Origin: a virus
Direction: 5' to 3' (one strand)
Virus record (IMG/VR): IMGVR_UViG_3300045988_155520
Span: 64,001 to 128,000 of that record
Length of the DNA stretch: 64,000 nucleotides
Part shown: one piece after another, positions 550 through 26,300 of the stretch
How the letters are laid out: every line of letters starts with the position of its first letter
Numbering within the stretch: the stretch's first letter is position 1
Translations under genes and position numbers: made by a program
Notes under the pieces: model-generated
What the model was told of the DNA's origin: nothing
Databases searched by the model: none
Seen by the model: only the letters and a program-made list of their open reading frames with translations

Positions 550-552
550 AAA

Positions 553-1086: not shown

Positions 1087-1098
1087 ATGTGTTTTTCA

Positions 1099-1590: not shown

Positions 1591-1638
1591 AACTTTAACC
1601 TTTTAGATGGTGGTGGTTATTAGCCACCACCACATAAT

Positions 1639-4515
1639 TTAAAACTTCTTTATATGTTTAACTCTATCATCTGATTCTTCTTGTTTGCCTGGATTAAAAG
1701 CAGATTTATAATCACCTGTAAGATATCCAGTTACACGTCTAAGATGAGAGATATGTGTACTACCACAAATAGGACAAACGTCGCCTATATCTCCACAATA
1801 TCCACAATCGTCGCAAGTGTCAATAGGTACATTGATTGCAAAGTATGGGATATCATTATCCATTGCATAATTGACAATAGTTTCAAGAGCCTCTATATTA
1901 TTCTTTGTTGAAGAAGGTAACTCAACATAAGTGATACAACCAGCATTAGAGAAATTAACTAATTGTGCTTCAATGTCAATCTTCTCAAACGGTGTCATCT
2001 CTTCCCAAACAGGAACATGTATAGAATTAGTAAAGTAACACTTGTCATGACGTTTGAACTTAATTCTTCTGTTCTCATCGTACATGATATTACCATGTTC
2101 ATCTTTCTCTGGCAAATTGATATATGTTACATTCTCAACATCACCATACATGTCTTTGAATTTCTTCATCGCTGTATAGCATAGATTCTCAGCAGGAGTG
2201 TAGTATACACCAAAGTTAAGTTTATACTTATTCTTGTATTCAGCTGCTCTCTTGTTGAACAGACCTTCTATCTCCTTTGCAAGAGCCATACCCTCTTCTG
2301 AAACATGATTCTTACCTATCAGTATTTGAAGTGTTTCAGCAAGACCTAACTGACCGATAGCCAATGTTCCATGCTTTAATGCTGAACGTATTCCTTCTTC
2401 TTCCTTATATCCAAGCATTGTGTTATTTTCCCACATAAACTTAGCTGAAGCAGGACTTTGTTTACACATCCACTCGAATCTTTCAAGAAGCATATCCTTA
2501 GATTCACTTATCTTCTTGTCAAGAAGTTTCATAAAGGCTTTTGTTATATCCTCCTTTGTGTATTCAGTGACCTTCAGTGATTCCTTAACCTCCATAGCTA
2601 ATGTTGGCATAATTACAGTAACTGGTGCAAGATTACCACGTCCGTCTTTAATCTGAGGATTCTGACCCTCATCGGCATTAACGTCTTTACCATTATATGT
2701 GCGACAATTGTGAGTTACCGTACCGTCATCCATTAAATAGAGTCTATCACCATCTAACTCAAATCCGTAAAAATCACCTACTTCATCTTCTGTAATTGTT
2801 ATAGTTGAAAGTGTACCATCTTCTTTATAGCCGTTAAATTTAGATTTCATTTCTTCGTTAAGATTCATAAAATCATGAACAGTTATATTGACAGTCATAC
2901 CATATTCTATATCTTTATAAGTTTCGCCACCGACATAAATAAGTGATAAAACATGACCTTCATTTACAACATAAGATTCAGCTCTACTCTGATTAACTTT
3001 AAAAAGTTTATCATTTCCTCTTATCAATGATTCAACAACTCTTGTTTGACCGTTAACACCCATTAACTTATCACCTACCTTAACATCTTGAACCATTTTT
3101 CTTGTTCCGTCTGCCATTACTATTGGTGTGTCTTTTGCATGACATCCCATCGTGGAAGTATAGGTACGTGGGTCATTCTTATCATAACCTTCATTAACAG
3201 ACCAGTCAACATTAACATAATTAGGATATATACGCATAGATGTTGATTTGAGTGCCAACTTGTAAAGGTCATAGTTAGGGTCGCCTTCTTTTCTATTAAT
3301 ACCCTTCATGCACTGGAAGATACTACAAGGGAATATAGCTGTCTTATGGAATTTACCTACACCCTTAATAGAACCTTGTAAAAGAGCTTGAATAACTAAT
3401 CTTCCCTCTGGAAGTGTACAAGTACCATAGTTGATAGATGTAAATGGTAACTGATTACCACTTCTACTTTGTAGTGTGTTTAAGTTGTGGTATAGACCCT
3501 CTACTGCTTGATTGAGTTCATTAAGTGTGTCAAATAAAGCACTTTGATAAAGTTTTGCATCTAACTTATCTTTATTATCAAGTGTAAAATCTTCTTCAGA
3601 TAAACCTGTTTCTTTGAAGAACTCGTTCTTGTAATCTTTGGTAAATTTATCAAGTGATGTTCTTTCTAAACCGTTTTTGTCTTTATAAAATTCTGAAGCA
3701 ATATTGATTATATCTGAATTATAGAATTTATCACTCTGTTTGATATATGCATTTATATAATGCTTCATAAAGCTCTTTCTAAAGAACTTAACCATTGTCC
3801 AATCTAAATGACTACCACTAACACCACCAAACTGCTGTAATGATTGTAACTGGAAAATTACAGCTACTAATTGGAATGCTGTGTTAAGTGAATTTGCAGG
3901 TCTTACATCGGTCTGTCTTGTATTGAACCCATTATTAAGCAAATCATCCAATGGACTGGTTAGACAGTTAGTCATACCTACAGCGTATGAATCAAGGTCG
4001 TGGATATAAATCTCATTGTTTTCATGATTTCTTCTTGCTTTTCTACTCATACAGAAGTCAAGTGCATACTTCTTTGTTACGAGTCTACTTGCTTCACCCA
4101 TTCTTCCACCAAATGAGTATTCATCAACATTTGCATTTTGGTTCTGTACATCTTCTGCCAAAAGTTTCTTCTTTAAACTCTTAGTCAGTTTGCTTTGATT
4201 ATCACGTACCAATTTATGCATATATCTATAGATGATATAAGATTTTGCAACATCCTGATAATCAGATGACATAAGGCATCTTTCTACATTATCCTGTATA
4301 TCTTCAACATCTACAGTTGTTTCACTTTCTTCATTATAAACGTTCTTTAAACATGCTATAATATTTTCAACAGCATTTTTCTTGATATCTTCAAAACTAC
4401 CAGTTTTTGTACTTTCAATATGTTTTCTACAAGAATCAAAAGCACTATCAATGGCTTTTTCTATTTTTCCAAAATGGAATTTTTCTACAGTATTATCTCT
4501 TTTACGAACTAACAT
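1639..4515 (-). CDS. nrdD: Class III (anaerobic) ribonucleoside-triphosphate reductase, interrupted by a mini-intein
   Basis: 958 aa. C-terminal zinc ribbon CDDCGYCG...CPICGS and glycyl-radical motif RRVTGYL. The active-site motif STMG|C...|CRTYNG is split by a Hint-like insert. An NrdG gene lies downstream. Confidence 0.95.
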   Translation of the reverse strand: MLVRKRDNTVEKFHFGKIEKAIDSAFDSCRKHIESTKTGSFEDIKKNAVENIIACLKNVYNEESETTVDVEDIQDNVERCLMSSDYQDVAKSYIIYRYMHKLVRDNQSKLTKSLKKKLLAEDVQNQNANVDEYSFGGRMGEASRLVTKKYALDFCMSRKARRNHENNEIYIHDLDSYAVGMTNCLTSPLDDLLNNGFNTRQTDVRPANSLNTAFQLVAVIFQLQSLQQFGGVSGSHLDWTMVKFFRKSFMKHYINAYIKQSDKFYNSDIINIASEFYKDKNGLERTSLDKFTKDYKNEFFKETGLSEEDFTLDNKDKLDAKLYQSALFDTLNELNQAVEGLYHNLNTLQSRSGNQLPFTSINYGTCTLPEGRLVIQALLQGSIKGVGKFHKTAIFPCSIFQCMKGINRKEGDPNYDLYKLALKSTSMRIYPNYVNVDWSVNEGYDKNDPRTYTSTMGCHAKDTPIVMADGTRKMVQDVKVGDKLMGVNGQTRVVESLIRGNDKLFKVNQSRAESYVVNEGHVLSLIYVGGETYKDIEYGMTVNITVHDFMNLNEEMKSKFNGYKEDGTLSTITITEDEVGDFYGFELDGDRLYLMDDGTVTHNCRTYNGKDVNADEGQNPQIKDGRGNLAPVTVIMPTLAMEVKESLKVTEYTKEDITKAFMKLLDKKISESKDMLLERFEWMCKQSPASAKFMWENNTMLGYKEEEGIRSALKHGTLAIGQLGLAETLQILIGKNHVSEEGMALAKEIEGLFNKRAAEYKNKYKLNFGVYYTPAENLCYTAMKKFKDMYGDVENVTYINLPEKDEHGNIMYDENRRIKFKRHDKCYFTNSIHVPVWEEMTPFEKIDIEAQLVNFSNAGCITYVELPSSTKNNIEALETIVNYAMDNDIPYFAINVPIDTCDDCGYCGDIGDVCPICGSTHISHLRRVTGYLTGDYKSAFNPGKQEESDDRVKHIKKF
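2707..3144 (-). mobile_element. Mini-intein (146 aa, no endonuclease domain) in NrdD at the MGC|R active-site loop
   Basis: Starts CHAKDTPIVMADGTRKMVQDVKVGDKL (block A), has YVVNEGHVLSL (block B-like), and ends GDFYGFELDGDRLYLMDDGTVTHN followed by +1 Cys. Removing it restores STMG-CRTYNG, resembling the conserved NrdD MGCR motif. I mapped the coordinates codon by codon. Confidence 0.8.
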
Positions 4516-4610
4516 TATATGTCTTTTAAAAATTTATTTATTTCTTATTATTGATATCATTAATTTAACAACGTTGTAAGAATAAATATGATATATTTTA
4601 TGTTTCGATT

Positions 4611-4658
4611 AAAAAAATCTGACCATTATCACGCAATATGCAGATAATCAGTCAGATT
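4611..4658 (-). terminator. Intrinsic terminator downstream of the helicase gene
   Basis: Arms aatctgac (4616-4623) / gtcagatt (4651-4658) with further internal pairing (gattatc/gataat). The minus-strand transcript continues into UUUUUUU (plus-strand A-run 4611-4617). Confidence 0.6.
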
Positions 4659-4685
4659 AATTTTTGAAATTTTTTCAAATCATTT

Positions 4686-6920
4686 TTATCCGTTATTTTC
4701 AAAAACTCGTTTGGCTATACTATTAGCAAAATCTTGTTTTTTCACTTGTTTATCTTTATCCCATTGAGACAAACTATCAACAACACTGACATTATCACAT
4801 GAGATTCTACACGTACCATTATTAAACTCAATACCATCAAAGACTTTACCAGCCTTACCTGCTCGGTTCTTAAGAATTGCTATTGTAGCTTTATTGTCTT
4901 CAATATCTTCAATAGTTCTTGCGATTGACATAACAACGTGTGCGACCTGAATCTTCTTAAATGAACCACCTGCTTTATCCATTGTAACAAGTTCTGCATT
5001 AACAGAATCCTTAGTACCTTGTAGAGGAATCCAGAAAGCCATATCCATTTCACCAGCCATTGCTTCAAATTTTCTCATAGTCTTTCCTTCTTTTTCCCAC
5101 TCACTTTGAGTATTTGCATCTCCTTTGTGTTCAAGACATTCAAAGTAGTCAACTATAACAAGGTCTGGTCTAAAACCATTGTTGATTTGCTTTTTAATAT
5201 AGCGTTCAATATCCCACGCTGTTTTCTCACCACTTGGGAAACGATTTATCCTTAGATTCTTGATGAGTTCAGGATAATCTTCTTTATAATGCGACAACTG
5301 ATGTTTTACACTATCAACATAGTCTGGTTTACTTAAATCTTTTGCTTCTATCTCAGTAATACGAGCCAAATGCTTGCGCTGTATCTGCTTAATTCTATCC
5401 TCGAATACAATTTGTAAGACCTTCTTGCCATTTGCAGCTGCATGACCAGCAATTGCGGTTGTCATTGAAGTATTATGTGTAACAATGAAGTAATCTGTCA
5501 AATAAAGATGAGATTCTGAGTCAACCATGATGCATTGTCCATCACAAATAGAATACGGAGTTACAGAAGTGATGTATCTTCTGCATTCCTCTTTTGACGG
5601 ATATATTACTTTACTTTGTTCTTCTTCTCTACCAAATATTTTAATATCTGTTGAATATATTTTAACAAGAACTTTATATACGTCATTATCGTCTCTTTCA
5701 TAAGTTGTAATTCCACCTAATGAGTTAACCAACAATTCAAAATCATTCAATAACTCTTTGTGACGTGTAGTAAACCATGTTTTACCATCTTCATCTACAT
5801 ATCCACCTCCGTCCATCATTCCATTCAGCAATGAAACACGTACAGGTAGTATATTGTAGAGATACTCATATCTAATTCCTGTTGCTTTAAATTCACCAAC
5901 ATCTTTGAGTATTCTATCACCTTCATTTCCCAAGTATAAACCCATTTCGTAAGGTTTTACAGGTATTTCATGAGGATAAAAATCAACAGGAGAGGTAAGA
6001 GGAATTGAAAACATAGGTTCATTTCCTTTATACAGTCCTTTTCCTAATATTTCATCTAAAGATAGGACGTTGTATTCCCCACCATTTTCACTTACACTCC
6101 ATAAATGTTCCTTACCACACTCTGTAAAACTTCCATCGCTGAATGTAACTTTATAAAATTGCCAATTCTTATGAGGAAATACATTTGTTACCTTATGCGG
6201 AAGACCATCTTCTCCTAACACATCATCACCTACCTTTATATCACCCATATGTTTTACACCATATGGAGTAAACACTTTTGAATGATATGGCTGTACTTTA
6301 CCGAATGAAGAAGGTCCAATAATAACACCAAGTTCTCCTTTTGCAATACCACCTTCCAAAACTTCATCAATCATATCAATACCAGTAGGTATTGTAACAC
6401 GATAATCGTCTGAAAGTGTTTCGTTAAGGTTATCAAAAACACCATATCCCATATCGGTAGCGGTACCAAGAGTCATAGCGTTATTGAAAAGTTCATAAAT
6501 TTCATCGTAATTATCAACTTCTCCATTACTTGCTAACTTCTCTATTTTACGAGCGGTTATTAGCATTTGTTGTTGACGAAAGAACTTTTGTGCTCTTTCT
6601 TGAACGAATTGAGAACCGTCTGAAGGGGTGTTTTTGATTTTATCAACTAAAGCAACATACTCTTCTCTTTGGATATCATTATATGCTTTATCTCTTAAAA
6701 GCATCTCCATTATCTCATAAGATGGGTGTATGTCGTTTTTATCGTAATACTCTTTTAGAAGTCCAACAAATATCTTTAGATGTGGGTCAGTGAACTTATT
6801 CTGCTCGATAATAGGGTTTAATTCACAGAAAAATTCTTTGTCTGCCATAAACTCATGTACAAGTTTATATTGATAAGTTTCACCAAGAAATCCTAAAGTA
6901 GCATCGTTATTATTATTCAT
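4686..6920 (-). CDS. Replicative DNA helicase, DnaB / T4 gp41-like, interrupted by an intein in the Walker A loop
   Basis: 744 aa. Walker A is split as GELGVIIGPSSFGK | intein | TSMTTAIAG. Downstream RecA-fold motifs are present (LVIVDYFECL Walker B-like, IPLQGTKDS, ILKNRAG). The mature length would be about 469 aa. Confidence 0.8.
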   Translation of the reverse strand: MNNNNDATLGFLGETYQYKLVHEFMADKEFFCELNPIIEQNKFTDPHLKIFVGLLKEYYDKNDIHPSYEIMEMLLRDKAYNDIQREEYVALVDKIKNTPSDGSQFVQERAQKFFRQQQMLITARKIEKLASNGEVDNYDEIYELFNNAMTLGTATDMGYGVFDNLNETLSDDYRVTIPTGIDMIDEVLEGGIAKGELGVIIGPSSFGKVQPYHSKVFTPYGVKHMGDIKVGDDVLGEDGLPHKVTNVFPHKNWQFYKVTFSDGSFTECGKEHLWSVSENGGEYNVLSLDEILGKGLYKGNEPMFSIPLTSPVDFYPHEIPVKPYEMGLYLGNEGDRILKDVGEFKATGIRYEYLYNILPVRVSLLNGMMDGGGYVDEDGKTWFTTRHKELLNDFELLVNSLGGITTYERDDNDVYKVLVKIYSTDIKIFGREEEQSKVIYPSKEECRRYITSVTPYSICDGQCIMVDSESHLYLTDYFIVTHNTSMTTAIAGHAAANGKKVLQIVFEDRIKQIQRKHLARITEIEAKDLSKPDYVDSVKHQLSHYKEDYPELIKNLRINRFPSGEKTAWDIERYIKKQINNGFRPDLVIVDYFECLEHKGDANTQSEWEKEGKTMRKFEAMAGEMDMAFWIPLQGTKDSVNAELVTMDKAGGSFKKIQVAHVVMSIARTIEDIEDNKATIAILKNRAGKAGKVFDGIEFNNGTCRISCDNVSVVDSLSQWDKDKQVKKQDFANSIAKRVFENNG
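5472..6296 (-). mobile_element. Intein (275 aa) with a LAGLIDADG-type homing endonuclease domain in the helicase P-loop; no Cys/Ser at position 1
   Basis: Begins VQPYHSKVFTPYGVKHMGDIKVGDDVLGEDG (block A-like but residue 1 is Val). Block B is GKEHLW, block F is DGQCIMVDSESHLYL, and it ends FIVTHN with +1 Thr. Two LAGLIDADG-like motifs are present: YEMGLYLGNEGD and LLNGMMDGGGYVDEDG. Excision restores GPSSFGK-TS. Confidence 0.7.
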
Positions 6921-6964
6921 TTCAAATAAAATAATTTATTCATGATAAAAATCATGAATGTTGT

Positions 6965-7000
6965 GAAAATTCGCCCACGCAGTCTTATCCACGTGGGCGA
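6965..7000 (-). terminator. Intrinsic terminator downstream of ORF 7006..7740
   Basis: 9-bp GC-rich stem tcgcccacg (6971-6979) / cgtgggcga (6992-7000), followed on the minus strand by AUUUUC. Confidence 0.6.
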
Positions 7001-7005
7001 TAAAA

Positions 7006-7740
7006 TTAATACAATGTGTTGAAATAATCCTTTGTCTTCTTCGCATACTTCTTTTCAAGCTTACGCATTCTCTTATAATTCTCATAACCAATATTGAAAT
7101 TATAAGTCTTGTACTTACTTGAATCTGAATCATAATAATATTCATCAGAAGTTGAGAAGTTTTCAATAGCTTCTTTAGGAGAAACTTCTCCATGTGTAGA
7201 ACACTGATTACAGATTGTATTTATGATAGCCATCAAAATGTCCTGCTTATCATAAATCATCTCTTTTAAAGCAGACAATTCTAAAGAAAGACGATTATTA
7301 TCCTTAAAGAAGTCTTCTTTATCGTATGTAAACACTTGTCCATTCTTATTTGTAATTCTAACCTTCTTATTAGTAAGGTCAACTCTATCCCTAATCATAC
7401 GTGGATAGCTATAACCATCCCAGATACGTGTAATAACAGGCTTCTTGTTATCACTAATCACAATCTTAAATGTGCATTCCCATGGCTCGCTAAGTGGGGC
7501 AGTAAATTCTTCAGCGACATCAGATGGATTGTAGTAATAGGTAGTATAAATACTACTCTTATCCTTCAAGTCATCATCAATCATTCTTACAATGTCATCT
7601 ACTGTTTCCTTAAACTCCACAGTGTTCATTGAACCCTCAATGTAATTAGGAATTTTAAAATTACGCTTACAAATAATAAAATCGTTTACATAGATAGTAT
7701 AATCAAAACGATACTCCTTGTAATCTTGTTTGTTGTCCAT
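7006..7740 (-). CDS. Hypothetical protein (244 aa) in the replication block
   Basis: Long ORF that fits the gene packing and has a terminator downstream. I recognise no motif. Confidence 0.55.
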   Translation of the reverse strand: MDNKQDYKEYRFDYTIYVNDFIICKRNFKIPNYIEGSMNTVEFKETVDDIVRMIDDDLKDKSSIYTTYYYNPSDVAEEFTAPLSEPWECTFKIVISDNKKPVITRIWDGYSYPRMIRDRVDLTNKKVRITNKNGQVFTYDKEDFFKDNNRLSLELSALKEMIYDKQDILMAIINTICNQCSTHGEVSPKEAIENFSTSDEYYYDSDSSKYKTYNFNIGYENYKRMRKLEKKYAKKTKDYFNTLY

Positions 7741-7785
7741 TAATCTTTTTAATTTAAAATGTTTGACAAAATATAAAAATAAAAA

Positions 7786-8100
7786 CTAAATATCTACAAT
7801 TTTAACAATTCTTCCTACTTCTTCGTAGAGTCTTACACCCCACTTTCCGTTACTATTTTTAATTGATTCTCCCAATCTTAGTTTACCAAGTTTGTTGTGA
7901 GAAACAATATTACCAACAGTCTTATTAAATCTGTTAGTCTTAGTACCTTTCTTTGTTGAGGATGTATATTCCTTATCATAATCATCAAGTACTAATGTTG
8001 ATGATAGATATTCTTTAAGTTCTCTTGTTGTAGCGTGATAATTTTCTTTTTTAGCAAGGTATTTTACCACAAACGGAACTAATTTCTTTTCTTTCCACAT
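7786..8100 (-). CDS. Small protein (104 aa), possibly a winged-helix (Mrr-N-like) DNA-binding protein
   Basis: I moved the start to MWKEKK (ATG 8100). The track's first 11 codons (MYLCINKKNTV) are a translation of the promoter box. The pattern HATTRELKEYLSSTL...TNRFNKTVGNIVSHNKL resembles wHTH N-domains; this is weak. Confidence 0.45.
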   Translation of the reverse strand: MWKEKKLVPFVVKYLAKKENYHATTRELKEYLSSTLVLDDYDKEYTSSTKKGTKTNRFNKTVGNIVSHNKLGKLRLGESIKNSNGKWGVRLYEEVGRIVKIVDI

Positions 8101-8122
8101 GACTGTATTTTTTTTGTTAATG

Positions 8123-8153
8123 CAAAGATACATGGAAAAAGATTTATAACAAA
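8123..8153 (-). promoter_or_regulatory. Bacteroides-type promoter (-33 TTTG / -7 TAnnTTTG)
   Basis: The minus strand reads TTTG(8153-8150)-N19-TATCTTTG(8130-8123), 22 nt upstream of the ATG at 8100. Confidence 0.6.
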
Positions 8154-8158
8154 ATTTT

Positions 8159-9322: not shown

Positions 9323-9338
9323 TGTATATATTTTTTTG

Positions 9339-9369
9339 CAAAGATACATTATTTTTGTTTAAAAACAAA
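9339..9369 (-). promoter_or_regulatory. Bacteroides-type promoter (-33 TTTG / -7 TAnnTTTG)
   Basis: The minus strand reads TTTG(9369-9366)-N19-TATCTTTG(9346-9339), 16 nt upstream of the ATG at 9322. The -33 box lies inside the U-tract of the preceding terminator. Confidence 0.65.
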
Positions 9370-9371
9370 AT

Positions 9372-9393
9372 AAGAGTGGCTAAAACCACTCTT
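9372..9393 (-). terminator. Intrinsic terminator downstream of the neck-like gene
   Basis: Stem aagagtgg (9372-9379) / ccactctt (9386-9393) with a 6-nt loop, then AUUUUGUUUUU on the minus strand. The stem overlaps the stop codon. Confidence 0.6.
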
Positions 9394-10546: not shown

Positions 10547-10580
10547 TATTATATACTTTTGATATAAATAGTTGTTAAAT

Positions 10581-10609: not shown

Positions 10610-10615
10610 AATTAT

Positions 10616-12398: not shown

Positions 12399-12409
12399 TT
12401 ACTTATTAT

Positions 12410-15813: not shown

Positions 15814-18800
15814 TTATCCAATAATAAATTGTTTTAATTTTCTATGTCCGTCACTATTTGGATGTAATCCATCTTTTGCACGTTTAACTTCAAGCCATTG
15901 ATTATCAGAAAGATTTACACAGTTAAAACCATTATCTCTAATTAATTTATCAACTTTTACTCGTGTATTTGAATCCCAAGCATGAATATTATTGTAAGTA
16001 TAGTTAGGTGCATAGACACAACCTACCCAAATAACTTTCTTTCCCTGTAATAGTGCTTTCATTTTCTTTAAACCCTCTACAGTTTGATTAGTATTATTAT
16101 TGTGGATATTAGGTGCATCATTCGTTCCTAAGAATACAATCACAGTATCAACACTATTCAACTTACTCTTCACGCTATCATAATAGAAAGATTTTGGATT
16201 AACTTCAACTCTCTTTCCATTGACATATCTGCGTGGCTGACTAATACCAGCAAATTCTCCAATTGAAATTCCTGGTTCGCAAACGAAGTCTGCATTTTGA
16301 TATAAGCCAGAATTTTTTGCACCAGCTGCAATTGAATCTCCAATTACCAATAACCTCTTTGGTGATACTTGTGTATTATTAGTTGTTGAGGTATTGTTAA
16401 TATAACCTGCATTACCACAAGAGCCTTGATAACGGTATACCTTAACAATGAAACTTCCACTTCTATAAGGTACAACGTTACTTGCTTTTCCCTCTGCAGC
16501 CCATGTACTTCCATCCCACATAGCAACGTGGAAACGCTCTGGTTCATTTCCATTACGTGACGGATTAGGCTTATTAGAAGTCCACAAACAAGAAATATCA
16601 CCAATCTGTAGGTTGACGTGTGTTCCATTTAAGCTTCCATCGGTTGCTTGATTAACACCCTCATAAATTTTGACAAAACCTAATTTCTCAAGAGATTCAG
16701 TCCACTCCCATGGGTATCCATAAGTACCTTTTCCCATGCCCGTTGATTTACTTATTAATCCAGAAGCGATAAGTGCTGCTCTTACGGATTTCGTACACTC
16801 TCCATTTGTTGCTACTTGACCTAATGGCAAACTATTAGATTTTATATATGAGGCAGCTACCTCTACATTCCAATCACATATTTTACCATTTATTATGTTA
16901 CCACCAGTTAGATTGGCTGTTAATGTTTCACAAGCAATAAGTTCCACATTCTTGAACCATGAAGCTTTTACACCATCTGGTCTTGAATTAATCCAATCAG
17001 ACTTGAAATTCTTATTAGCCAAAACTTCAGATGGTTTTCTACCATATTTCTTTAACAATGATAAAAAGAAATCATTAGGTAAAGATTCATTTATTGGATA
17101 ATTTGAATAATTAAAATTATTATTAACTATTTTCAAACCTGTTACAATACGGCAACGTGTTGCGCCACCGCTATTTGTTTGAGATACAGTAACACCAATA
17201 GATATAGGTTTTAAACCAAAAGAATTACCATCTTTCGCATTCCAATATATCTCTGACACATAATCATGATAACCATTTAAAAGTACATCAAATAATTGTG
17301 TCATGTGACTATTTCCTCCATCTGATTGTTTAAAGATTAGATAATTACCTTTTATCTCCTTATTAAATCCACAAGTTAACTTAACATTATAATCTCCAAA
17401 GGTTTTCTGTACGGCATTAAATAATGAACTTGTAAAAGAATCATCATTAGTACTACTTGTAGATGGTTGCACCGTAGTAGTATTACCATTATTGATATAA
17501 TAGTTGTAGTAAGCAACAGCCTTATTCTGTCTATCTCTACGTGCAGCACCACTACTTTGTTCAAAATAAGCATCCCATGCTGCAGCAGCATCAGAAGGAG
17601 TATTTGTAGCTAAAAGTCTTTGTGCAGACTTTGTACTATTCTTTCTATAAGGTCCTGTTAATGAAATAAAGACATATTCTAACTGTTTATCAATATTCAT
17701 TGATTTAGGTATTACTGGTGCTGGACCGCTATTTGGATAAGAAGTACCATTTGGTGAATTGAAAGCCATCTTAGGGTTATCATTATTCATCATCATACTT
17801 AATGCAGATTTATTAAGCATGAATAAACCACCAGAATAATAACCATTCGAGTCTTTAATAACTTTATATGGGTCAAACCCTGGAGATTCAATAGCAATAT
17901 TTCCAACAATACCAGCTGCTTGTGCTACTGATATAGTACCGAACTCTCCACCAATAGTTCTATTCCAGATACTAATAACTTTACTAATCATAGTAGCGGA
18001 TTTCTTACTTTCATCACCAGTCAATTCTACACCTTCTCCGCCAATATCAGTACCAACAGGGTAAATCTTATATTCACAATCATTATCCACGTCAGCAACT
18101 CTATTTGCAGCCGTAAATTCAGAGCCACTTTCAGAAGTATTGTTTGCTAAAAGGAGTGGTGATTTATTCAATCGTGTTTGTACATTAGCCATACGAACAC
18201 CTGTAAAGGTTGTTTGGAATTTTCCTGGTTCTATTTTGTGACTAACTTCCTCTATCAAGTACGACCCTCTAAACATAGGTACATTGTTCAATGTAAAATA
18301 CATTAAAGGCTGTACCCATGCACACCCTAACATGGTAACAGTGCATGAATATGAATTATTTGAATAAATGGTAAATAAATCCTGACCTGTTGATACTATC
18401 TTTTTGTCACCATTTTTACCATCTCCTACGGCAGCTGAGGCAATAGCAAATGTAGCCTGTAATGACTGTTCTGTCATCATAGGGTTTTCCATTCCAATCT
18501 CAATATTGTTAAAGAAACTCTGGTACTGCATTCCATATCCAACACCAAAGGCAGGTATCTTATACCAATTTTTCTTATTAACCTCTGATAAATTTCTTGA
18601 TGTTATAGCTATTGGTGCTAATTGAGGGTTCTTAGATATTTCTTCTGGATTCAAAGAAAAACCATCATCTTCATAATCACCTCTTCCACCTGTGTTTATT
18701 TTACTTGAATGTTCATACGAATATAGAACTACAAAGTCTGGATGCCTTTTAGGTGTACGCATTGAATTAAATGGAACTGGTGTAAACATACTTTCCATAT

Positions 18801-21800
18801 TACGTTTATCACTTAAATCCATAAAATTCTGAACAGATAACATTATACATCTATTTGTAGCAAACATATCTGACATGAAACTTACCAAACTTGATAAATA
18901 GTTGTTCTGGTCAGTTACCATTAGTAATTTGTTAACCATGTCACCAACGTCTACAAATAATTTATCACCTATCTTGTTGTAATAAGAATCAATAAAATAG
19001 AAATTATGTCCGTCTGTTTGTTTATCACTACCTGTTTCATCACTGAAGAATTTATACATTTTCCATTCTTCAAAATTTGATGAAGCAACCCACTTATCAT
19101 AAAGAAGTTTTAAGTAGTTATAAAATGCAATCTTCATGTCATCGGTAGCTTTGTCAGCGGATGGTGCAAAAGACGGTGCGCTAACTGAATCTGAAGTATC
19201 TATTTTTCTTGATACACTATATTCTTTTGCTAAAGCATTCAGGAATGTGTCTAAATAGATTTTAGCCATACCCTCTGTGATGAGCTGGTAATCGTTACCT
19301 ATATTGTTCTGATTTGTTTCAAAATCATTGTCAATAGTAGCACCCTTGATGATTCTTACAGGTAACATCAACTCTTTCATCAGCATATTCATTGATTGTG
19401 ATGTCTCATTGTTGAATAGTCTCAATAAATCATCATAATTAGCAAAAGCCTCTCTATACACATTAACAGTATTACTCTTGAAATTACCTGTAGCTGCATC
19501 CAAATTTATATCATATGGCGCAAATAATTTATTATATTTTGTGTCAGCCCAATTAGTAAACTCTTTAATATAGCGTGCTACCATGGCAGAGTTCATAAAT
19601 TTCAAATGACGTAAGTTACTTAAATATTTATTACTTTCCATCATTGAATTTAAATTCTTAAAATCAAGCCAGCCGTTATTGGATGTGTTTAGATATAATA
19701 TAGCACCTATTTGAAGTATTGCAGAATAAGGAACTATAATCTGTCTCTTTTGTGATATATCACCTAATATTTTGTTAAAATCATACATAGGTAATAAAGA
19801 GTATAGAACCCACGCACATCTTTTTCTAATACTTCTTTCTTCTCTGAAAAAATTTTGAGAGAATATAGAATAATCCATATGTAAACCTAAACGCTTTGAC
19901 CCCTTTCCTGTATTAATACCACAGAATTGAGTTATTGCATAAGTTTCAGGATTAGTACCTATGTTTGTATAATCTGTACCGTTATGTAATCTCTCTAATT
20001 TAACATATTTGGTTGCATAAGTATTTGTATTCTTAACTTTATCATAAAAACGAATGTTCTTTCTATCTTTTTCTTGATAGGGTACATCTACTGCTTTTTG
20101 AACAAGAGGTTCAATTTTGGAATTGTTAGTTCCGAAATAACTACTAAACGTTTCAGGACTATATGACACATTGAATCCATCTACGTTATTAACAAAATCA
20201 GAATATCCCTCTGGTGAAGAACCACTTCCTAAAGATTTCTGAATTATTGTATTAACTCTGTCTATATTTTTATCAAAATAAACAACACATTCGTTAGTAA
20301 CATCATCTGAATTTATAATGCTACTTCCTTTCTTTATTGGTGCAAAATTAGAGATAATTTCATCATACCCCTCACCAAAATCTCCATTATTAGCTATGCT
20401 TACCGCCTCACTAATTGTGTATTTACCTAACGGTGAAAAATATGAATAGCCATTTCCACTATTCGTTAGGAAATTACTATTACTAACCTTGAATATATTA
20501 AGGAAAGGAGAAAAATCACTTCCTACTTTTGTTGCAAGTGGTTGATTTCCCCATGAATTAGATTTGTTAGACTCAGTTACAATTGATAAAACATCATCTG
20601 AATTTATACCACCTTGTTCATTTGCGTTTGATTGTAATAATCTTCTGATTACATTTCCTGGTTGTAAGAAAATATATGTAAAATTCTTAGCTTCAGTTTC
20701 AGCAATAGTTTTAATAGTTTCGTTCTTCAAATCTCGTCCATTTAAACCAAAACCAAGTATTTGAATCATACGCATAAAAACTCTACCTGCAAATTCTCTT
20801 TTGTCATTTACAGGCAATGCATCTTTATAATCACCATAAGGATTAGACTTAGTAATAAAGTCAAAATTGGCTACAGGGAAATGTATTCTTGAATTACCGC
20901 TTTCTAAGATATTATTAGCACCATTAGCTGTTAACACATCATTCTCATCTAAACGTTCTTGAATATGCTGTGCATTAGCAATAATATAAGCTACCTGATT
21001 GATACCATTGAAAATTTCATTAACAAGGTCTGCTTCTCTAAACTTCTTAGAACGTCCAAATTCTCCGACCCAAGAATCTTCTCTTTTTGTAACACCATTT
21101 TCTGTAATATCCTTTGTGAATCTTGGGAATGGTGGTACTATTTTTGTTCTAACAGAAACATCTGGTATATTTATGTTGCTTATACCTAAGTCATTAATGG
21201 TACGCTGTTCGCTCTGTATAGATTCAACAACTTGATACATCAAATACATAAATGTTTCAAAATGAGCCATATAAATCTTTGACATATTAGATATTGTTGG
21301 GTTAAAACCAAGAGCTTGTATTAATACTTTTTGTTTCTCACGTCTAACTTCTTCTTCAATTTCTTCAATATCTTCACTTTCAGCGTTAATACTTTCTTGT
21401 AATACAGAGTAATCACCAAAATTAAAAATAAAAGCATAACTATAGTGTCTTCCATTTTCAAAAGGATTAATCTTCTTACCTGCAAAAGCATTTCTAACCT
21501 CATCAGCAGTTAAACCTCGTACATTGGTAAATTCGCTATTTGTAAATGGTGTACCAAGTCTATTGATAATCTTTACAGGTAAAATATCTGTAAAGTTTTG
21601 AGCTGGAACTGGGTATACTTCACCTGTACTTTCCTCTACTCTGTTAGCTGCTGCTATAAGATTTGTTAGAGAATCAAATATACTAATATTTTCGCCATCT
21701 TTAAGATAAGATATAGTACCAAAATTAGTAACTGACCCACCCTTTATTGCTTCTTCTGATACTAATACGATTACAGATTTGTAAGTAGTACCATCTTCAC

Positions 21801-22956
21801 GCATTACAACACCATATTTACCGTTAACTGAAGATTCGTTATCAAGAATATTTATTAAATTTGTAAAGAAATCATTATATGCAGCATAAAGTTGTGTTCT
21901 ATCATTAACTGTTGTATTCTTCTTATTATAACGTGAAATAATAGGATTGTCTTGTCCTAACTCTTCGGCTTTATGAAGAACAAAACCATAGTTAGCACAC
22001 AATTCACTCAATTTAGGCATAGGTGTAAGCTGCCCAGAAGAATCTGGTATAACAAATTCTCCCTCTTCAACTTTTCTTTCCCAATAATTAGACCCATCCA
22101 GATTGTTGCAATAAGGTGCTGCCATACACGCAAGAAGAGAAACGTCATTCATGAATGAGAATGAATAACCAACAAACTTAGCGGTAGCATTAAAGTTACC
22201 TGTCGTGGAATCAAACTTTACTCTAAAATCATTACATGTAATTTCATAAGATACAGGCTGCCCATAGAATCCTTTTACTGTGATATTAAATCTTGGATAT
22301 GGAAACGTAAAGAAACACTGAAAGAAAGACGAAGCTATGTCTTTTTCAGAAAAACCCCTTAACCCATTAAATCCATCACCATTACGCATTTCAGTAGGTG
22401 CCATTAATGAACCACCACGTATATCAACGAACTCTATAGTAACCTGTGGGACCATCCATTGCTGATAAGTAATATCAACAGATGATATTCCAAACATTTC
22501 TGTTGTTCCGTGGTCCTTTAAATCATAATAAAAACTATCAGTATAATCGGTAGATAAACCATTAGAATAACCCCAATAATCACTTCCTACCTTTGCTGTT
22601 TTATGATTCTTAATATCCTCTTTACCCTCTCTAACAGATTTAAAGAAAGATTCATCATATTGTCTATCAGAATCTCTACGGTAGAACTTTTTACCCTCCA
22701 TAAAGTTTACGGAAGATTTACCACCTTGGTCAGTCCATGACATTATTATCACACTTTTATCATGTGGATTCTTCTTTGCATCGAAATTTCTGCCAACGAC
22801 CTCTACCTCCATGTTAAGCGCAATACAATAGTCTTCAAGGTCAGGTGCCTTGAAGTGGTCTCCATGGTCTGTCGTTACACCAGAATGAAAATTAAGTGTG
22901 TTGTTAGGTTCAACATATGCAACACTATCTGTTATATTACTAACACTTGCCATCAA
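15814..22956 (-). CDS. Giant virion (baseplate hub / tail-tip) protein, 2380 aa, with three predicted C-terminal hydrolase domains: lysozyme-like, papain-like amidase and SGNH esterase
   Basis: VAQAAGIVGNIAIESPGFDP...GGLFMLNK (phage tail lysozyme-like, about nt 17500-18000). GECTKSVRAALIASG ... ERFHVAMWDG (Cys/His NlpC-P60/CHAP-like, about 16450-16870). LLVIGDSIAAG ... FLGTNDA ... DGLHPNSDGH (SGNH/GDSL blocks I, III and V, about 15817-16365). It lies downstream of the tape measure and LysM-like genes. Confidence 0.65.
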   Translation of the reverse strand: MMASVSNITDSVAYVEPNNTLNFHSGVTTDHGDHFKAPDLEDYCIALNMEVEVVGRNFDAKKNPHDKSVIIMSWTDQGGKSSVNFMEGKKFYRRDSDRQYDESFFKSVREGKEDIKNHKTAKVGSDYWGYSNGLSTDYTDSFYYDLKDHGTTEMFGISSVDITYQQWMVPQVTIEFVDIRGGSLMAPTEMRNGDGFNGLRGFSEKDIASSFFQCFFTFPYPRFNITVKGFYGQPVSYEITCNDFRVKFDSTTGNFNATAKFVGYSFSFMNDVSLLACMAAPYCNNLDGSNYWERKVEEGEFVIPDSSGQLTPMPKLSELCANYGFVLHKAEELGQDNPIISRYNKKNTTVNDRTQLYAAYNDFFTNLINILDNESSVNGKYGVVMREDGTTYKSVIVLVSEEAIKGGSVTNFGTISYLKDGENISIFDSLTNLIAAANRVEESTGEVYPVPAQNFTDILPVKIINRLGTPFTNSEFTNVRGLTADEVRNAFAGKKINPFENGRHYSYAFIFNFGDYSVLQESINAESEDIEEIEEEVRREKQKVLIQALGFNPTISNMSKIYMAHFETFMYLMYQVVESIQSEQRTINDLGISNINIPDVSVRTKIVPPFPRFTKDITENGVTKREDSWVGEFGRSKKFREADLVNEIFNGINQVAYIIANAQHIQERLDENDVLTANGANNILESGNSRIHFPVANFDFITKSNPYGDYKDALPVNDKREFAGRVFMRMIQILGFGLNGRDLKNETIKTIAETEAKNFTYIFLQPGNVIRRLLQSNANEQGGINSDDVLSIVTESNKSNSWGNQPLATKVGSDFSPFLNIFKVSNSNFLTNSGNGYSYFSPLGKYTISEAVSIANNGDFGEGYDEIISNFAPIKKGSSIINSDDVTNECVVYFDKNIDRVNTIIQKSLGSGSSPEGYSDFVNNVDGFNVSYSPETFSSYFGTNNSKIEPLVQKAVDVPYQEKDRKNIRFYDKVKNTNTYATKYVKLERLHNGTDYTNIGTNPETYAITQFCGINTGKGSKRLGLHMDYSIFSQNFFREERSIRKRCAWVLYSLLPMYDFNKILGDISQKRQIIVPYSAILQIGAILYLNTSNNGWLDFKNLNSMMESNKYLSNLRHLKFMNSAMVARYIKEFTNWADTKYNKLFAPYDINLDAATGNFKSNTVNVYREAFANYDDLLRLFNNETSQSMNMLMKELMLPVRIIKGATIDNDFETNQNNIGNDYQLITEGMAKIYLDTFLNALAKEYSVSRKIDTSDSVSAPSFAPSADKATDDMKIAFYNYLKLLYDKWVASSNFEEWKMYKFFSDETGSDKQTDGHNFYFIDSYYNKIGDKLFVDVGDMVNKLLMVTDQNNYLSSLVSFMSDMFATNRCIMLSVQNFMDLSDKRNMESMFTPVPFNSMRTPKRHPDFVVLYSYEHSSKINTGGRGDYEDDGFSLNPEEISKNPQLAPIAITSRNLSEVNKKNWYKIPAFGVGYGMQYQSFFNNIEIGMENPMMTEQSLQATFAIASAAVGDGKNGDKKIVSTGQDLFTIYSNNSYSCTVTMLGCAWVQPLMYFTLNNVPMFRGSYLIEEVSHKIEPGKFQTTFTGVRMANVQTRLNKSPLLLANNTSESGSEFTAANRVADVDNDCEYKIYPVGTDIGGEGVELTGDESKKSATMISKVISIWNRTIGGEFGTISVAQAAGIVGNIAIESPGFDPYKVIKDSNGYYSGGLFMLNKSALSMMMNNDNPKMAFNSPNGTSYPNSGPAPVIPKSMNIDKQLEYVFISLTGPYRKNSTKSAQRLLATNTPSDAAAAWDAYFEQSSGAARRDRQNKAVAYYNYYINNGNTTTVQPSTSSTNDDSFTSSLFNAVQKTFGDYNVKLTCGFNKEIKGNYLIFKQSDGGNSHMTQLFDVLLNGYHDYVSEIYWNAKDGNSFGLKPISIGVTVSQTNSGGATRCRIVTGLKIVNNNFNYSNYPINESLPNDFFLSLLKKYGRKPSEVLANKNFKSDWINSRPDGVKASWFKNVELIACETLTANLTGGNIINGKICDWNVEVAASYIKSNSLPLGQVATNGECTKSVRAALIASGLISKSTGMGKGTYGYPWEWTESLEKLGFVKIYEGVNQATDGSLNGTHVNLQIGDISCLWTSNKPNPSRNGNEPERFHVAMWDGSTWAAEGKASNVVPYRSGSFIVKVYRYQGSCGNAGYINNTSTTNNTQVSPKRLLVIGDSIAAGAKNSGLYQNADFVCEPGISIGEFAGISQPRRYVNGKRVEVNPKSFYYDSVKSKLNSVDTVIVFLGTNDAPNIHNNNTNQTVEGLKKMKALLQGKKVIWVGCVYAPNYTYNNIHAWDSNTRVKVDKLIRDNGFNCVNLSDNQWLEVKRAKDGLHPNSDGHRKLKQFIIG

Positions 22957-23308: not shown

Positions 23309-26300
23309 CTATTTTTTATAAATTCTACCTCGACCTTTGGTATCAACATATAGACCTTTCTTAAGGATATCTTGTGATACTGTTTGTCTTGTATTTTTTT
23401 CATTAACAAACTTATAATCAGCAAAGTAAAAACCTTCACGATAATTATCCTGTTTATCTTCTATTAAAGGTGGGGTTAAACCTGAACGAATAGTTTTTAC
23501 TGGTTTACTTCCATATATAAACCATTCGGCTTCATCATTTTTTGTATTATTTTTACGTCTACTTCTACATCCCCAACATTTCGCATCCACAACTTGTTTT
23601 GTATTCTTATCATAATAATATATGTAAGCAATAAACATAAAATTAGTTTTTCTTCTATCCAGATAATTTTTAATCATTTCATAAAAGTCAAAAGGACCTG
23701 TTGGTATAGTTTCTTCAAATGGGGTTACACCATCTGTTGCCTCCATCAATTTATTACCTTGTCCACTGAAACGTGAAATACCAAACCTAATATACTTACA
23801 TATAACCCTCTTACTATTGTTGTTAGAGATACCCGAACGAACAGGTGCTTTAACCTTAAGAGGTTCCTGCTGACTGGTTGTAACACCCTCTTTAATAACT
23901 TCCGCTGTTTCGTTTGTAGTACCACTTCGGTTTGGAGTCGGTGTTGGTACTGAAGATTGAGTTCTTGATGACTTGTTTCTTCTATGTCCAGTAGACTTAG
24001 CATTAACAGCCTTGGCATCTACAGCTTTAGCATTTACTGCCTTTGGTTGAGATTCTACTTTATTAGCAACATTTGTATCTTTTGCACCAACTTCATCATT
24101 AGCATCACTTATTGGTACTGCTTCTGACTCTGGCAAATTATAATTTACTTCAAACGGCTTAAAGTAGGTAAGTTTACCATTACTATATTCTGCCTGTTCA
24201 GACCTATTATCATATACCTCTGTATTGGCATAGTAATTGAATGATACAGCATTTTGAAGACGAGCAATAGGTCCAGATAGACCGCTACCACCTAAGAAGC
24301 TAAAGCTAATACTAATATCAGCAAACATTGGCATTATACCTATACCCTCTTGATTTAAATCCCACTGAACAGGGTCATATTGAATACTAATAGATTTAAT
24401 TGCAATCTTTGTATAATAGAAATCACCTATTCTAAGAATACATACTGGCGGTCTACCGAATGCAAGGTTATTAGCTATACGATTATTCTGATTAACATCG
24501 CTTGCACCAATTGTAGGACCTTGACGTGTACACTGATGTAAGAATGTTAAGCGTGCATTAAAACCTTCAGGTGATACAGAATGGAATGCAGGGTCAAAGT
24601 ATTTTACTTTTTCGGTAACTAAGTTATGCAATGTAGGGTCATTAAGTTTGAGTAATTTAAAGAACTCACCCTCATTATCATATCTTGGATAATTTCCTAA
24701 TTCTGTTTTATTCTTTGCTTTATCATTATCATTTACATTTTTCTCACCAATACATTTTTCATACAACTTCCATGCTTGGTCTGGCGTTATACTACCTTTC
24801 TCTACAACAGACATAACTTTCGCTTTACACTCATCATCTGTCATACGACTCGTAACTTCTGACATTGTTGTAAAGATTTTTTCTGTACCATTACCATTAT
24901 CTTTACTGAATGTCGGATTTTCCAATAAGCTAATAGCACTTAAAAGTGTATCTAAATAGGGGTCTGTATCACCACAAGGTATTCCTTCGATACCTTTCTT
25001 GTATATATTGACAATTCCCTTAACTTCTTCTATATTATACTGTTTAGCTATATAAACACCATCACGATTACTCTTTAAGTCGTCAACTATTTTTAGTGCT
25101 AAAGTTGAATAAACAAACTTATCGCCTATATCTTGTTTCTGTTTACCATAATCTTCAAGATATTTCAGCCCTACAGATTTACTAAGTTCTTTTCTGACTC
25201 TGTCATAAATACGAGGATAGCTACAGTATTGGATTGCATAATCACGAAGTTTATCATAATCATATTTAGTATATAAACTTATAGATGTTTCTTCGTTTAA
25301 ATATACTTGTTTGATTACTTTACTAAACTCTTTATCATCGTTTAACAAGGATGGATTACCATTTGTTTTGTAGAATAAATCAACACTTTCTAAAAACCAT
25401 GGTTCATAATAAACATATTGATTCTTATATTCTTCTTCAAATTCTAATCTATGTGCATTACCCCATTTATAAATGTTATCAAAGTCGAATACAACAGGTC
25501 TTCTGGTTGTTTCATCTGGATAGAAATTATAATCATAGAAATAACGATATGCCATAGCCTTGTTAAATGACTGTTGGTCAGTCACATTCACTTCTGGAAC
25601 ACCATTTCCTATTACTTTTTCACGTGTTTCTGAATTTGATGTTGAAGTTTCATCTGATGTAGATGTAGTTTCTCTTGAATAAACACTTGATGAATCATTG
25701 GAAGATAAACTTGCAGTTCTGTAAGCATCTCTTATCCATCCACGTATCTTTTCTCTATTACTATCACTGAATCCATCTATTTCACCAGTACACTCTTTGC
25801 CCTGAATGCCATTTCCGTACAGTTTAAGGAGTTCTTTTTGTGTACTACTGTCATTCATCCACATGTCCACACTTAAGCGGTTATAAGCGTTCTTAGGACG
25901 TGAATAGAACTTGTTCCAATAATGTGCACCACAACGCATAATGAAAATATCATTACAAGTATATCCTGTTATATTTCCATCATTATCCTTTGAACCTAAT
26001 ATAGTCCAATCTTTTCCTTCTTCATTGTCAAGTTGTGGCAATTTAGGGTCTTGCAGAATCTTAGGTGTATTAGTCATACTGTCTTGACTATCCACAGTCA
26101 AAGCGTCTCTATAATGAATGATAATAGCAGCACTTCTCCATTGCTTGATAAGTATGTCATCCACGTCATTATTAGCAATTCTTTTAGGTGTTGTTTGAAT
26201 ATTTGTTCTTGTATTATTTTCACCTGATTTTGCTAAATCTTGGAACGGTGATTTAAAAGAAGAAAACCATGCTTTAGCTGTATCAGCTCTTTGCATCGCC

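Follow-up and report, generated by a model that had tools for sequence, protein, structure and literature searches.

A probable class 3 intein with a decayed LAGLIDADG domain in the P-loop of a jumbo-phage DnaB/gp41-like helicase

The window, the 64,000-nucleotide stretch of DNA analysed here, derives from a 250.7-kb contig of a human oral metagenome and carries on its minus strand the gene laid out in Table 1. Judged by its sequence, this open reading frame is a DnaB/gp41-like helicase of a large (jumbo) phage, interrupted within the Walker A motif. The flanks of the insert read ...IIGPSSFGK upstream and TSMTTAIAGH... downstream, so that the insertion point separates Lys208 from Thr+1, the Lys and Thr of Walker A; residues 209–483 of the precursor, which make up the insert, run VQPYHSKVF...KEHLWSV...CDGQCIMVDSESHLYLTDYFIVTHN. 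Removing the insert yields a continuous RecA-like ATPase core with a Walker A motif of the form GxxxxGK[T/S]. Pfam DnaB_C covers the in silico spliced protein in a single stretch (residues 177–418, 57 bits, E 1.9e-15), but matches the unspliced precursor in the C-extein only (34 bits). RecA (GPESSGKTTLT) aligns with the spliced protein over the junction without a gap, and its residues 23–417 match PDB chains (8dtp among others) that carry the deposited name 'DnaB-like replicative helicase'. Residues G202, S204, F206, G207 and K208 show no variation in an alignment of 11 orthologues.

Table 1. Positions of the helicase gene, its intein and the intein's functional elements in the window.
Feature	Position	Strand	Basis or remark
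Precursor gene, DnaB/gp41-like replicative helicase with intein, 744 aa	4686..6920	-	open reading frame; Pfam DnaB_C; PDB matches
N-extein, aa 1–208	6297..6920	-	last seven residues are the Walker A start GPSSFGK, 6297..6317
Intein, 275 aa, Val1 to Asn275 (Val1 codon 6294..6296)	5472..6296	-	intein-free orthologues P0159, P0160, P0163; family HMM
N-terminal part of Hint domain, blocks A and B, intein aa 1–100	5997..6296	-	gp41-1, MchDnaB1 and MsmDnaB1 matches; beta strands of model
Block B His64-Leu65-Trp66 (B:10 His, B:12 Trp)	6099..6107	-	aligned with MchDnaB1 His65, Trp67
Degenerate LAGLIDADG domain and linkers, intein aa 101–235	5592..5996	-	Pfam LAGLIDADG_3, aa 154–221, E 1.9e-6
LAGLIDADG motif 1, YEMGLYLGNEGD	5916..5951	-	Asn124 (5925..5927) in catalytic Asp column
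LAGLIDADG motif 2, LLNGMMDGGGY	5799..5831	-	Gly164 (5805..5807) in catalytic Asp column
C-terminal part of Hint domain, blocks F and G, intein aa 236–275	5472..5591	-	MchDnaB1 alignment
Cys255, block F:4, predicted initiating nucleophile	5532..5534	-	aligned with MchDnaB1 Cys124
Block G Thr273 (G:5), His274 (G:6), Asn275 (G:7, succinimide-forming)	5472..5480	-	MchDnaB1 alignment; relatives
Thr+1, first C-extein residue, Walker A Thr, predicted second-step nucleophile	5469..5471	-	
C-extein, aa 484–744 and stop codon, remaining RecA-like ATPase core	4686..5471	-	Pfam DnaB_C at 484–693 of the precursor

By sequence comparison the phage has no close cultured relative: megablast of window positions 1–20000 against 50,697 phage records gave no match, and the top tblastn matches are helicases of Enterococcus and Vibrio phages at no more than 25% identity. 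The original prediction had spoken of a Bacteroidota-type phage, which finds no support in the sole test made, a crude count of the Bacteroidota promoter motif TANNTTTG that shows no enrichment (104 observed versus 96 ± 10 expected). An NCBI entry within the 90%-identity cluster of the protein bears the label 'DNA packaging protein'; the annotation of the gene should read helicase precursor with intein.

At the sequence level the boundaries of the intein are exact and its first residue is Val, because intein-free orthologues run GPSSFGK-TSMTT unbroken. In P0159 (75% identical), P0160 and P0163, GPSSFGK is followed directly by TSMTT, TSLTT or SSLST, leaving a gap of exactly the 275 residues, and position 2 of the family HMM falls on intein residue 2. 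This alignment, together with the restored Walker A motif, bears out the split of GPSSFGK and TSMTT by 275 residues from which the original prediction set out, and each residue quoted there was located in the sequence (Val1, His64 and Trp66, Cys255, Thr273-His274-Asn275 and Thr+1).

Class 3 inteins are defined by the absence of Ser, Thr or Cys as first residue, by a Trp-Cys-Thr (WCT) triplet and by Ser or Thr at the +1 position (PMC2807308; PMC5222942). The insert has Val at position 1, Trp at B:12 two residues past the B:10 His, Cys at F:4, Thr at G:5 followed by His-Asn, and Thr at +1. Among its closest known counterparts are the experimentally established class 3 inteins MsmDnaB1 (Mycobacterium smegmatis, PDB 6bs8) and MchDnaB1 (M. 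chimaera, 6rix/6riy). His64, Trp66, Cys255 and Thr273 are equivalent to His65, Trp67, Cys124 and Thr143 of MchDnaB1, with MsmDnaB1 aligning too; in the C-terminal Hint part GQCIMVDSESHLYLTDYFIVTHN pairs with MchDnaB1 VRCVEVDNPAHLYLAGRGMVPTHN, and Thr273-His274-Asn275 pairs with Thr143-His144-Asn145. With the whole definition present and the alignment to solved inteins in agreement, the insert is by every sequence criterion a class 3 P-loop intein. The call of a helicase P-loop intein devoid of an N-terminal nucleophile thus stands, with the junction fixed and Val as residue 1, as does that of Trp (B:12), Cys (F:4) and Thr (G:5) with Thr+1, all three of which line up with catalytic residues of the solved MchDnaB1 and MsmDnaB1 in the alignment that had been proposed as a check.

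The mycobacterial inteins and the window intein alike interrupt a DnaB-family helicase in its Walker A loop, straight after Gly-Lys (the MchDnaB1 N-extein is SVGK), and begin with a non-nucleophilic residue, which is Ala in MsmDnaB1 and most tabulated relatives and Val here. MsmDnaB1 and MchDnaB1 are 130–145-residue mini-inteins from bacterial chromosomes without an endonuclease domain, whereas the window intein is of phage origin and retains a decayed LAGLIDADG domain; identity to them over the N-terminal lobe is only ~38%, counted from the alignment. PDB sequence matches of this lobe are led by gp41-1 (PDB 6qaz; WCT variant 6riz; E 1e-10 and 3e-9; ~41% identity, counted), followed by MchDnaB1 (1e-7) and MsmDnaB1 (1e-6). 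Naturally split, gp41-1 comes from a phage gp41-type helicase. It belongs to class 1, having Cys1, a Phe at B:12 and an Asp at F:4, in contrast to the natural contiguous WCT intein described here, and shares with it a native Thr at G:5 (PMC7664689). A natural WCT intein whose N-terminal lobe is ~40% identical to that of a class 1 intein would favour a divergent over a convergent origin of class 3.

An AlphaFold2 model of the intein (pLDDT 95.4, pTM 0.92) predicts a Hint beta-fold built jointly by the two terminal segments, N and C, of the insert. Foldseek returns a probability of 1.00 against many solved inteins, placing PI-SceI and archaeal VMA inteins (PDB 1vde, 7qsu, 7qst) first (E 5e-13, TM 0.65–0.71 normalised to the query, identity 10–15%) and MchDnaB1 and MsmDnaB1 next; the splicing domain matches class 3 mini-inteins with TM 0.79–0.83 normalised to the target. 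PI-SceI and the VMA inteins likewise combine Hint with an inserted LAGLIDADG domain, but are class 1, have complete endonuclease domains and measure ~360–450 residues; PI-SceI is a proven homing endonuclease. Pfam Hom_end_hint matches the intein below threshold only. Two extra cysteines lie near the active site, Cys60 beside block B and Cys251 four residues ahead of Cys255.

The family to which the intein belongs became visible because the HMMER search with it was exhaustive (13,628 related cluster representatives); a word-indexed protein search gave only 4 relatives. At E <= 1e-10 there are 8,373 representatives and at E <= 1e-30 there are 337, the top E value being 5e-67, a match that on sequence lies far beyond chance. 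Among the top 150 hits we delimited 194 inteins, with a median length of 345 residues. The W-C-T triplet is present in 188 of the 194, and 177 of these 188 have no N-terminal nucleophile. Cys F:4 is found in all 194; block B has His in 193 and Trp in 189, block G has Thr in 192 and Asn in 194, and the +1 residue is Thr in 150, Ser in 39 and Cys in 5. Gly-Lys directly precedes the junction in 135 of the 194. Val1, a non-nucleophile, is a minority state at a position that is mostly Ala or Pro in the family: it occurs in 4 of the 194 relatives, among them the closest helicase orthologues P0022 and P0033. Across a family alignment of 57 sequences H64, W66 and C255 never vary, and T273, H274 and N275 hardly do.

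Inserted between the two parts of the Hint domain is an endonuclease domain that looks, from sequence and model, like a decayed and inactive remnant. Instead of the acidic residue (Asp or Glu) that closes each of the two LAGLIDADG motifs it has Asn124 and Gly164; the 194 relatives have Asp in 143 and Asn in 13 at the first position, and Asp in 159 and Gly in 6 at the second, the Gly164 substitution also being found in the close relatives P0155–P0158. Most of the first half-domain is gone: ~52 of its consensus positions are absent between motifs 1 and 2, and 12 consensus positions are absent further on in the domain; in the AlphaFold2 model the beta sheet is missing between helices 115–123 and 143–146 (local pLDDT 63–75). 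The second half-domain is intact in the model, but the paired alpha-beta-beta-alpha-beta-beta-alpha half-domains of a DNA-binding saddle are not formed. Loss of the catalytic Asp and deletion in the first half-domain bear out the suspected inactivity of the endonuclease, which had been tied to a degenerate motif 1; that motif is indeed degenerate (Asn124), and the decay extends to motif 2, which also has no catalytic Asp (Gly164). The element has probably lost its homing ability, because both catalytic Asp residues are gone and the first beta sheet is deleted.

The combination of class 3 splicing residues and LAGLIDADG motifs in a Bacteroidota-type phage had been put forward as extending the range of a rare splicing class. 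This novelty argument fails, because the class 3 prototype itself has an endonuclease domain, LAGLIDADG motifs are the rule (82.5% of 1,701 class 3 inteins of nr; PMC7891396) and phage helicase and ATPase P-loops are a documented, typical habitat of such inteins (PMC2807308; PMC5050341); nor is a class rare that counts 8,373 cluster representatives here. The window intein is an ordinary member of a large, well-described family. Its prototype, the DnaB intein of mycobacteriophage Bethlehem (MP-Be DnaB), likewise has a phage DnaB-like helicase as host, a WCT triplet, Thr+1, an inserted homing-endonuclease domain and no N-terminal nucleophile, with Pro1 in place of Val1 (PMC2807308). It differs in length (341 versus 275 residues), in its native junction (VSQDQ/.../TKNTF versus GK/T) and in an endonuclease that appeared active, being toxic to E. 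coli until I224S was introduced (PMC2807308), whereas both catalytic Asp residues are lost here. The gain for basic knowledge is small: one more well-delimited case, in the expected host protein and site, from a family of thousands.

The insert is very probably a class 3 intein that splices in cis, placed at the classic P-loop site of a jumbo-phage DnaB/gp41-like helicase. Splicing itself, and its route through Cys255 as the initiating nucleophile via a branched thioester, are proposed by analogy with biochemistry on other class 3 inteins: dependence on Cys F:4 and the block F branched thioester have been examined in MP-Be, MsmDnaB1, Mle DnaB and Bvi IcmO (PMC2807308, PMC5222942). The precursor would be translated without an intact ATP-binding loop. 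Cys255, activated by His64, Trp66 and Thr273, would then attack the Lys208–Val1 bond, shifting the N-extein onto Cys255 as a branched thioester; transesterification would pass it to Thr+1, cyclization of Asn275 would free the intein, and an O-to-N acyl shift would create the Lys–Thr peptide bond, giving a 469-residue helicase with Walker A GPSSFGKT. The intein would persist because the helicase stays functional only with precise splicing.

Grafting WCT into the related class 1 intein gp41-1 left almost no splicing and gave mostly cleavage (PMC7664689), so the triplet alone is no guarantee of activity. This result, the plainly degenerate endonuclease domain and the precedent of an inactive class-3-like intein (PMC3196547) lend something to the quite unlikely alternative that the insert is a splicing-dead relic, its helicase copy being non-functional or working in some other way, as has been proposed for the Arthrobacter FB24 Arth_1007 intein pseudogene. 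Against it, the open reading frame of the precursor is intact, and V1, EHLW, GQCIMVD and VTHN/T are kept in relatives 85–95% identical over the whole protein. Region-by-region estimates of dN/dS are ~0.03–0.05 for the exteins and ~0.06–0.14 for the intein, rough values that can be read only as clearly below 1 everywhere because dS is saturated (>1, and undefined in some regions). The allele is also widespread, as its cluster comprises 123 sequences from contigs that reach ~320 kb, and a helicase whose Walker A Lys and Thr are separated by 275 residues is, from what is established for P-loop NTPases, not expected to bind ATP. A direct attack of Thr+1 on the Lys208–Val1 bond, with Cys255 merely structural, would make the element a KlbA-like class 2 intein, and is less likely still. 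Class 2 inteins share the missing N-terminal nucleophile but are by definition without WCT (PMC2807308), and tested class 3 inteins need Cys F:4 absolutely, their Ser or Thr+1 being unable to initiate (PMC5222942); we set this mechanism aside because the triplet is present here and invariant, Cys F:4 in every relative included. A class 1 intein with a mis-set boundary and a Cys, Ser or Thr at the true N-terminal junction, the finding that the original prediction itself had named as contrary, has a negligible chance of being right and is refuted by the three empty-site orthologues, which set the gap precisely as K/V...N/T; no shifted junction regenerates GK[T/S], the closest such residues are Ser6 after Val1 and Ser205 before it, and the family HMM starts at Val1.

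If the insert is a splicing class 3 intein, it may have outlived its endonuclease and be retained as a conditional post-translational switch of the phage replicative helicase that responds, for instance, to redox state or zinc, an extension that we regard as unlikely. The class 3 DnaB intein 1 of mycobacteria, which occupies this P-loop site too, responds to environmental stressors according to a study whose title presents it as an oxidative stress sensor (PMC6195587). The extra cysteines of the window intein, Cys60 and Cys251, would be in keeping with such a switch. The remnant endonuclease domain, with its catalytic residues absent, appears to be under purifying selection; simple neutral decay would not predict conservation like that of the Hint domain. 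The two domains are conserved to the same degree.

The presence of the intein is sporadic among helicase homologues. It is found in 5 of the 120 best, and the exteins of P0162, which has it, are 96.4% identical to P0160, which does not. In GC content the intein (0.34) is like the gene on either side of it, and a compositional sign of recent acquisition is absent. With Val1, a dead endonuclease, and close relatives whose alleles either lack the intein or have a mini-intein, the locus offers a natural series on how inteins decay. The intein, which is related to the widely used gp41-1 and has WCT by nature, could guide the engineering of class 3 splicing tools; in gp41-1 the direct graft failed. 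When every stop-to-stop segment of 80 residues or more was scanned with the family HMM, a single additional intein came up, in NrdD.

Splitting the Walker A motif of a DnaB/gp41-like helicase is a 275-residue intein; its sequence, its family and its fold all support a class 3 assignment. This class is defined by a non-nucleophilic first residue, a triplet of Trp at B:12, Cys at F:4 and Thr at G:5 (WCT) and Ser or Thr at +1 (PMC2807308; PMC5222942), and all three parts of the definition are found here, as Val1, the WCT triplet and Thr+1. The intein reads VQPYHSKVFTPYG...TECGKEHLWSV...SICDGQCIMVDSESHLYLTDYFIVTHN, flanked by ...GELGVIIGPSSFGK on its N side and TSMTTAIAGHAA... on its C side, and every residue quoted in the original prediction is present at the coordinates it gave.

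Features of the helicase and NrdD genes and of the window around them
Feature	Window position	Strand	Length or detail
Helicase precursor ORF	4686..6920	minus	744 aa
Helicase intein	5472..6296	minus	precursor residues 209-483
N-terminal Hint lobe	5997..6296	minus	
Half-deleted endonuclease remnant	5592..5996	minus	
Cys60 (block B:6)	6114..6119	minus	
Cys251	5544..5546	minus	
NrdD (anaerobic ribonucleotide reductase) ORF	1639..4515	minus	958 aa
NrdD intein	2707..3144	minus	146 aa; class 1 mini-intein (family HMM)
Large ORF	15814..22956	minus	2,380 aa
Large ORF	23309..29287	minus	1,992 aa

The best 120 of 1,271 homologues returned for the helicase spliced in silico comprise 115 proteins of 456–483 aa and five of 711–744 aa. 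In an alignment of 11 orthologues, P0159 (75% identical), P0160 and P0163 are intein-free and read GPSSFGK-TSMTT, -TSLTT or -SSLST, with a gap of exactly the 275 intein residues; on this alignment the intein boundaries are exact. Pfam confines the DnaB_C match to the C-terminal part of the precursor (34 bits), and places LAGLIDADG_3 over intein residues 154–221 (E 1.9e-6) and a sub-threshold Hom_end_hint over residues 15–52; removing the intein in silico raises DnaB_C to 57 bits in one stretch (177–418). The spliced helicase aligns without gaps through the junction with the RecA P-loop GPESSGKTTLT, and its residues 23–417 align to PDB chains, those of 8dtp among them, that carry the deposited name 'DnaB-like replicative helicase'. 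Shifted boundaries were rejected, as none regenerates GK[T/S]. Since the empty sites also fix the gap, residue 1 is Val, and the intein-free orthologues and restored P-loop uphold the proposal that no Cys, Ser or Thr occupies the true N-terminal junction.

The top PDB sequence matches of the intein are gp41-1 (6qaz), its engineered WCT variant (6riz) and the class 3 inteins MchDnaB1 (6rix, 6riy) and MsmDnaB1 (6bs8). These alignments pair KEHLW with AAHQW, GQCIMVD with VRCVEVD and VTHN with PTHN, placing His64, Trp66, Cys255 and Thr273 opposite His65, Trp67, Cys124 and Thr143 (chain numbering), the catalytic triad and WCT Trp of MchDnaB1 (PMC7664689); the predicted W-C-T assignment is thus confirmed against a solved class 3 intein. 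The N-terminal Hint lobe is equally similar to class 1 gp41-1 (6qaz; ~41% identity by count, E 3e-9) and to proven class 3 inteins (MchDnaB1; ~38% by count, E 1e-7), a likeness that bears on the convergent rise of class 3 inteins suggested partly from a failed WCT graft onto gp41-1 (PMC7664689).

The family of this intein is very large, and its members are highly uniform. HMMER, run exhaustively over 1.84 billion cluster representatives, returned 13,628 of them at E ≤ 1e-3, 8,373 at E ≤ 1e-10 and 337 at E ≤ 1e-30. Delimited in the top 150 proteins, many of which hold two or three inteins apiece, were 194 complete inteins (BLAST mapping to both ends of the window intein). Cys at F:4 and the C-terminal Asn are present in all 194, His at B:10 in 193, Thr at G:5 in 192 and Trp at B:12 in 189; 188 have the full triplet, 177 combine it with a first residue other than Cys, Ser or Thr, and G-K directly precedes the junction in 135. 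The +1 residue is Thr (150), Ser (39) or Cys (5). First residues are A 115, P 25, E 9, M 9, L 8, C 6, S 6, G 5, V 4, Q 4, D 2 and F 1, making Val1 a minor variant, common to the nearest intein-bearing helicase orthologues, P0022 (IGSSSFGK before and VQPNDAKI after the junction) and P0033. In a 57-sequence alignment Gly31, His64, Trp66 and Cys255 are invariant, and Thr273, His274 and Asn275 nearly so.

In two of the HMMER hits, P0018 (residues 156–844) and P0017 (95–704), a single P-loop site holds two inteins, one right after the other: GK, an intein with a non-nucleophilic first residue, an intein starting with Cys, then T. In this layout, Cys1 of the second intein would serve as the +1 nucleophile for the first. 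Both P0018 inteins have WCT; the second of P0017 does not, with Gln at B:10, Phe at B:12 and Val at G:5. Such a doubling looks as though the site had been invaded more than once.

The suggestion that a phage class 3 intein with LAGLIDADG motifs extends a rare class is contradicted by these counts and by the literature. The prototype, MP-Be DnaB, contains a homing endonuclease domain, and Tori et al. note that most class 3 inteins interrupt the ATPase P-loop of a helicase-like protein, DnaB and phage terminases among them (PMC2807308). Hoffmann et al. found 1,701 in nr, 82.5% with LAGLIDADG motifs (PMC7891396); Kelley et al. describe Lys-Thr as the 'classic' P-loop insertion position and cite a proposed phage origin for the class (PMC5050341). 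The window intein is previously uncharacterised, but its type was already known. A member of the precursor's 90%-identity cluster in NCBI nr, DAN76283.1 ('MAG TPA: DNA packaging protein [Caudoviricetes sp.]'; note 'Hom_end-associated Hint'), is probably a mislabelled helicase, its label perhaps carried over from terminase proteins with similar inteins.

The AlphaFold2 model of the intein (57-sequence alignment as input) has a mean pLDDT of 95.4 and a pTM of 0.92. Its top Foldseek matches in the PDB are PI-SceI and archaeal VMA inteins with homing endonucleases (E ~1e-12), and the best among mini-inteins are MchDnaB1 and MsmDnaB1 (target-normalised TM 0.79–0.83). LAGLIDADG enzymes require both acidic residues for cleavage. 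At the catalytic Asp columns of motifs 1 and 2, Asp is found in 143 and 159 of 194 relatives, and Asn124 and Gly164 in the window intein. Compared with the 344-column family consensus, the intein lacks ~52 positions between the first LAGLIDADG helix and the second, and 12 more in the second half, which explains most of the gap between its 275 aa and the 345 aa of the family median. The model lacks a β-sheet between helices 115–123 and 143–146 (pLDDT 63–75 there) and keeps the helices and strands of the second half-domain. Both motifs, the deletions and the model support a remnant, predicted to be catalytically dead, which bears out and extends the earlier idea of an inactive endonuclease. Relatives P0155–P0158 (85–95% identical) share these defects, and the same insertion site holds a mini-intein in P0004. 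Erosion has gone further in P0162, whose 238-aa Ala1 WCT intein is absent from P0160; their exteins are 96.4% identical, pointing to a recent gain or loss in a single lineage.

Several observations argue indirectly for continued splicing. The precursor ORF is intact, and the splicing residues are all unchanged in relatives diverged down to 85% identity; the precursor's cluster (≥90% identity) comprises 123 sequences, found on contigs as long as ~320 kb. Nei–Gojobori dN/dS against the related contigs L003 and L004, rough because dS is saturated, is 0.03–0.05 in the exteins and ~0.06–0.14 over the intein including the remnant. ATP binding is not expected of a helicase whose Walker A Lys and Thr are 275 residues apart; selection acting on the exteins therefore implies splicing. 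By analogy with MP-Be DnaB, MsmDnaB1, Mle DnaB and Bvi IcmO (PMC2807308; PMC5222942), Cys255 would attack the Lys208–Val1 peptide bond to form the block F branched thioester, the N-extein would pass to Thr+1 by transesterification, Asn275 cyclisation would free the intein, and an O-N acyl shift would yield GPSSFGKT. Some caution is due, as the WCT triplet by itself does not guarantee activity: grafted onto gp41-1, it gave mostly cleavage and little splicing by comparison (PMC7664689).

In the half-deleted remnant, dN/dS is ~0.05–0.14, not above that of the Hint domain (dS saturated), a low value that simple neutral decay does not explain; folding or splicing may require the remnant, or it may serve some other role. 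Near the active site are two non-catalytic cysteines, Cys60 and Cys251, the latter four residues ahead of Cys255; block B:7 is most often Cys among the relatives listed. They recall, by analogy, the oxidative-stress sensitivity described for a mycobacterial class 3 DnaB intein (PMC6195587).

An identical precursor protein occurs in human oral metagenome ERR589708, where its gene lies on a contig of 250.7 kb beside genes for a 5'-3' exonuclease, a T4 gp13-like protein and NrdD. Megablast of window positions 1–20000 against 50,697 phage records found no DNA-level relatives, and the label of a Bacteroidota-type phage gained no support, the Bacteroidota promoter motif TANNTTTG showing no enrichment. 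The neighbouring NrdD carries its own intein, beginning CHAKDTPIV after TSTMG and ending DDGTVTHN before CRTYNG. This intein is polymorphic among close relatives, since L003 retains the 958-aa form and NrdD of L004 has 812 aa (958 minus 146) and no Hint match. Elsewhere in the window are two very large ORFs.
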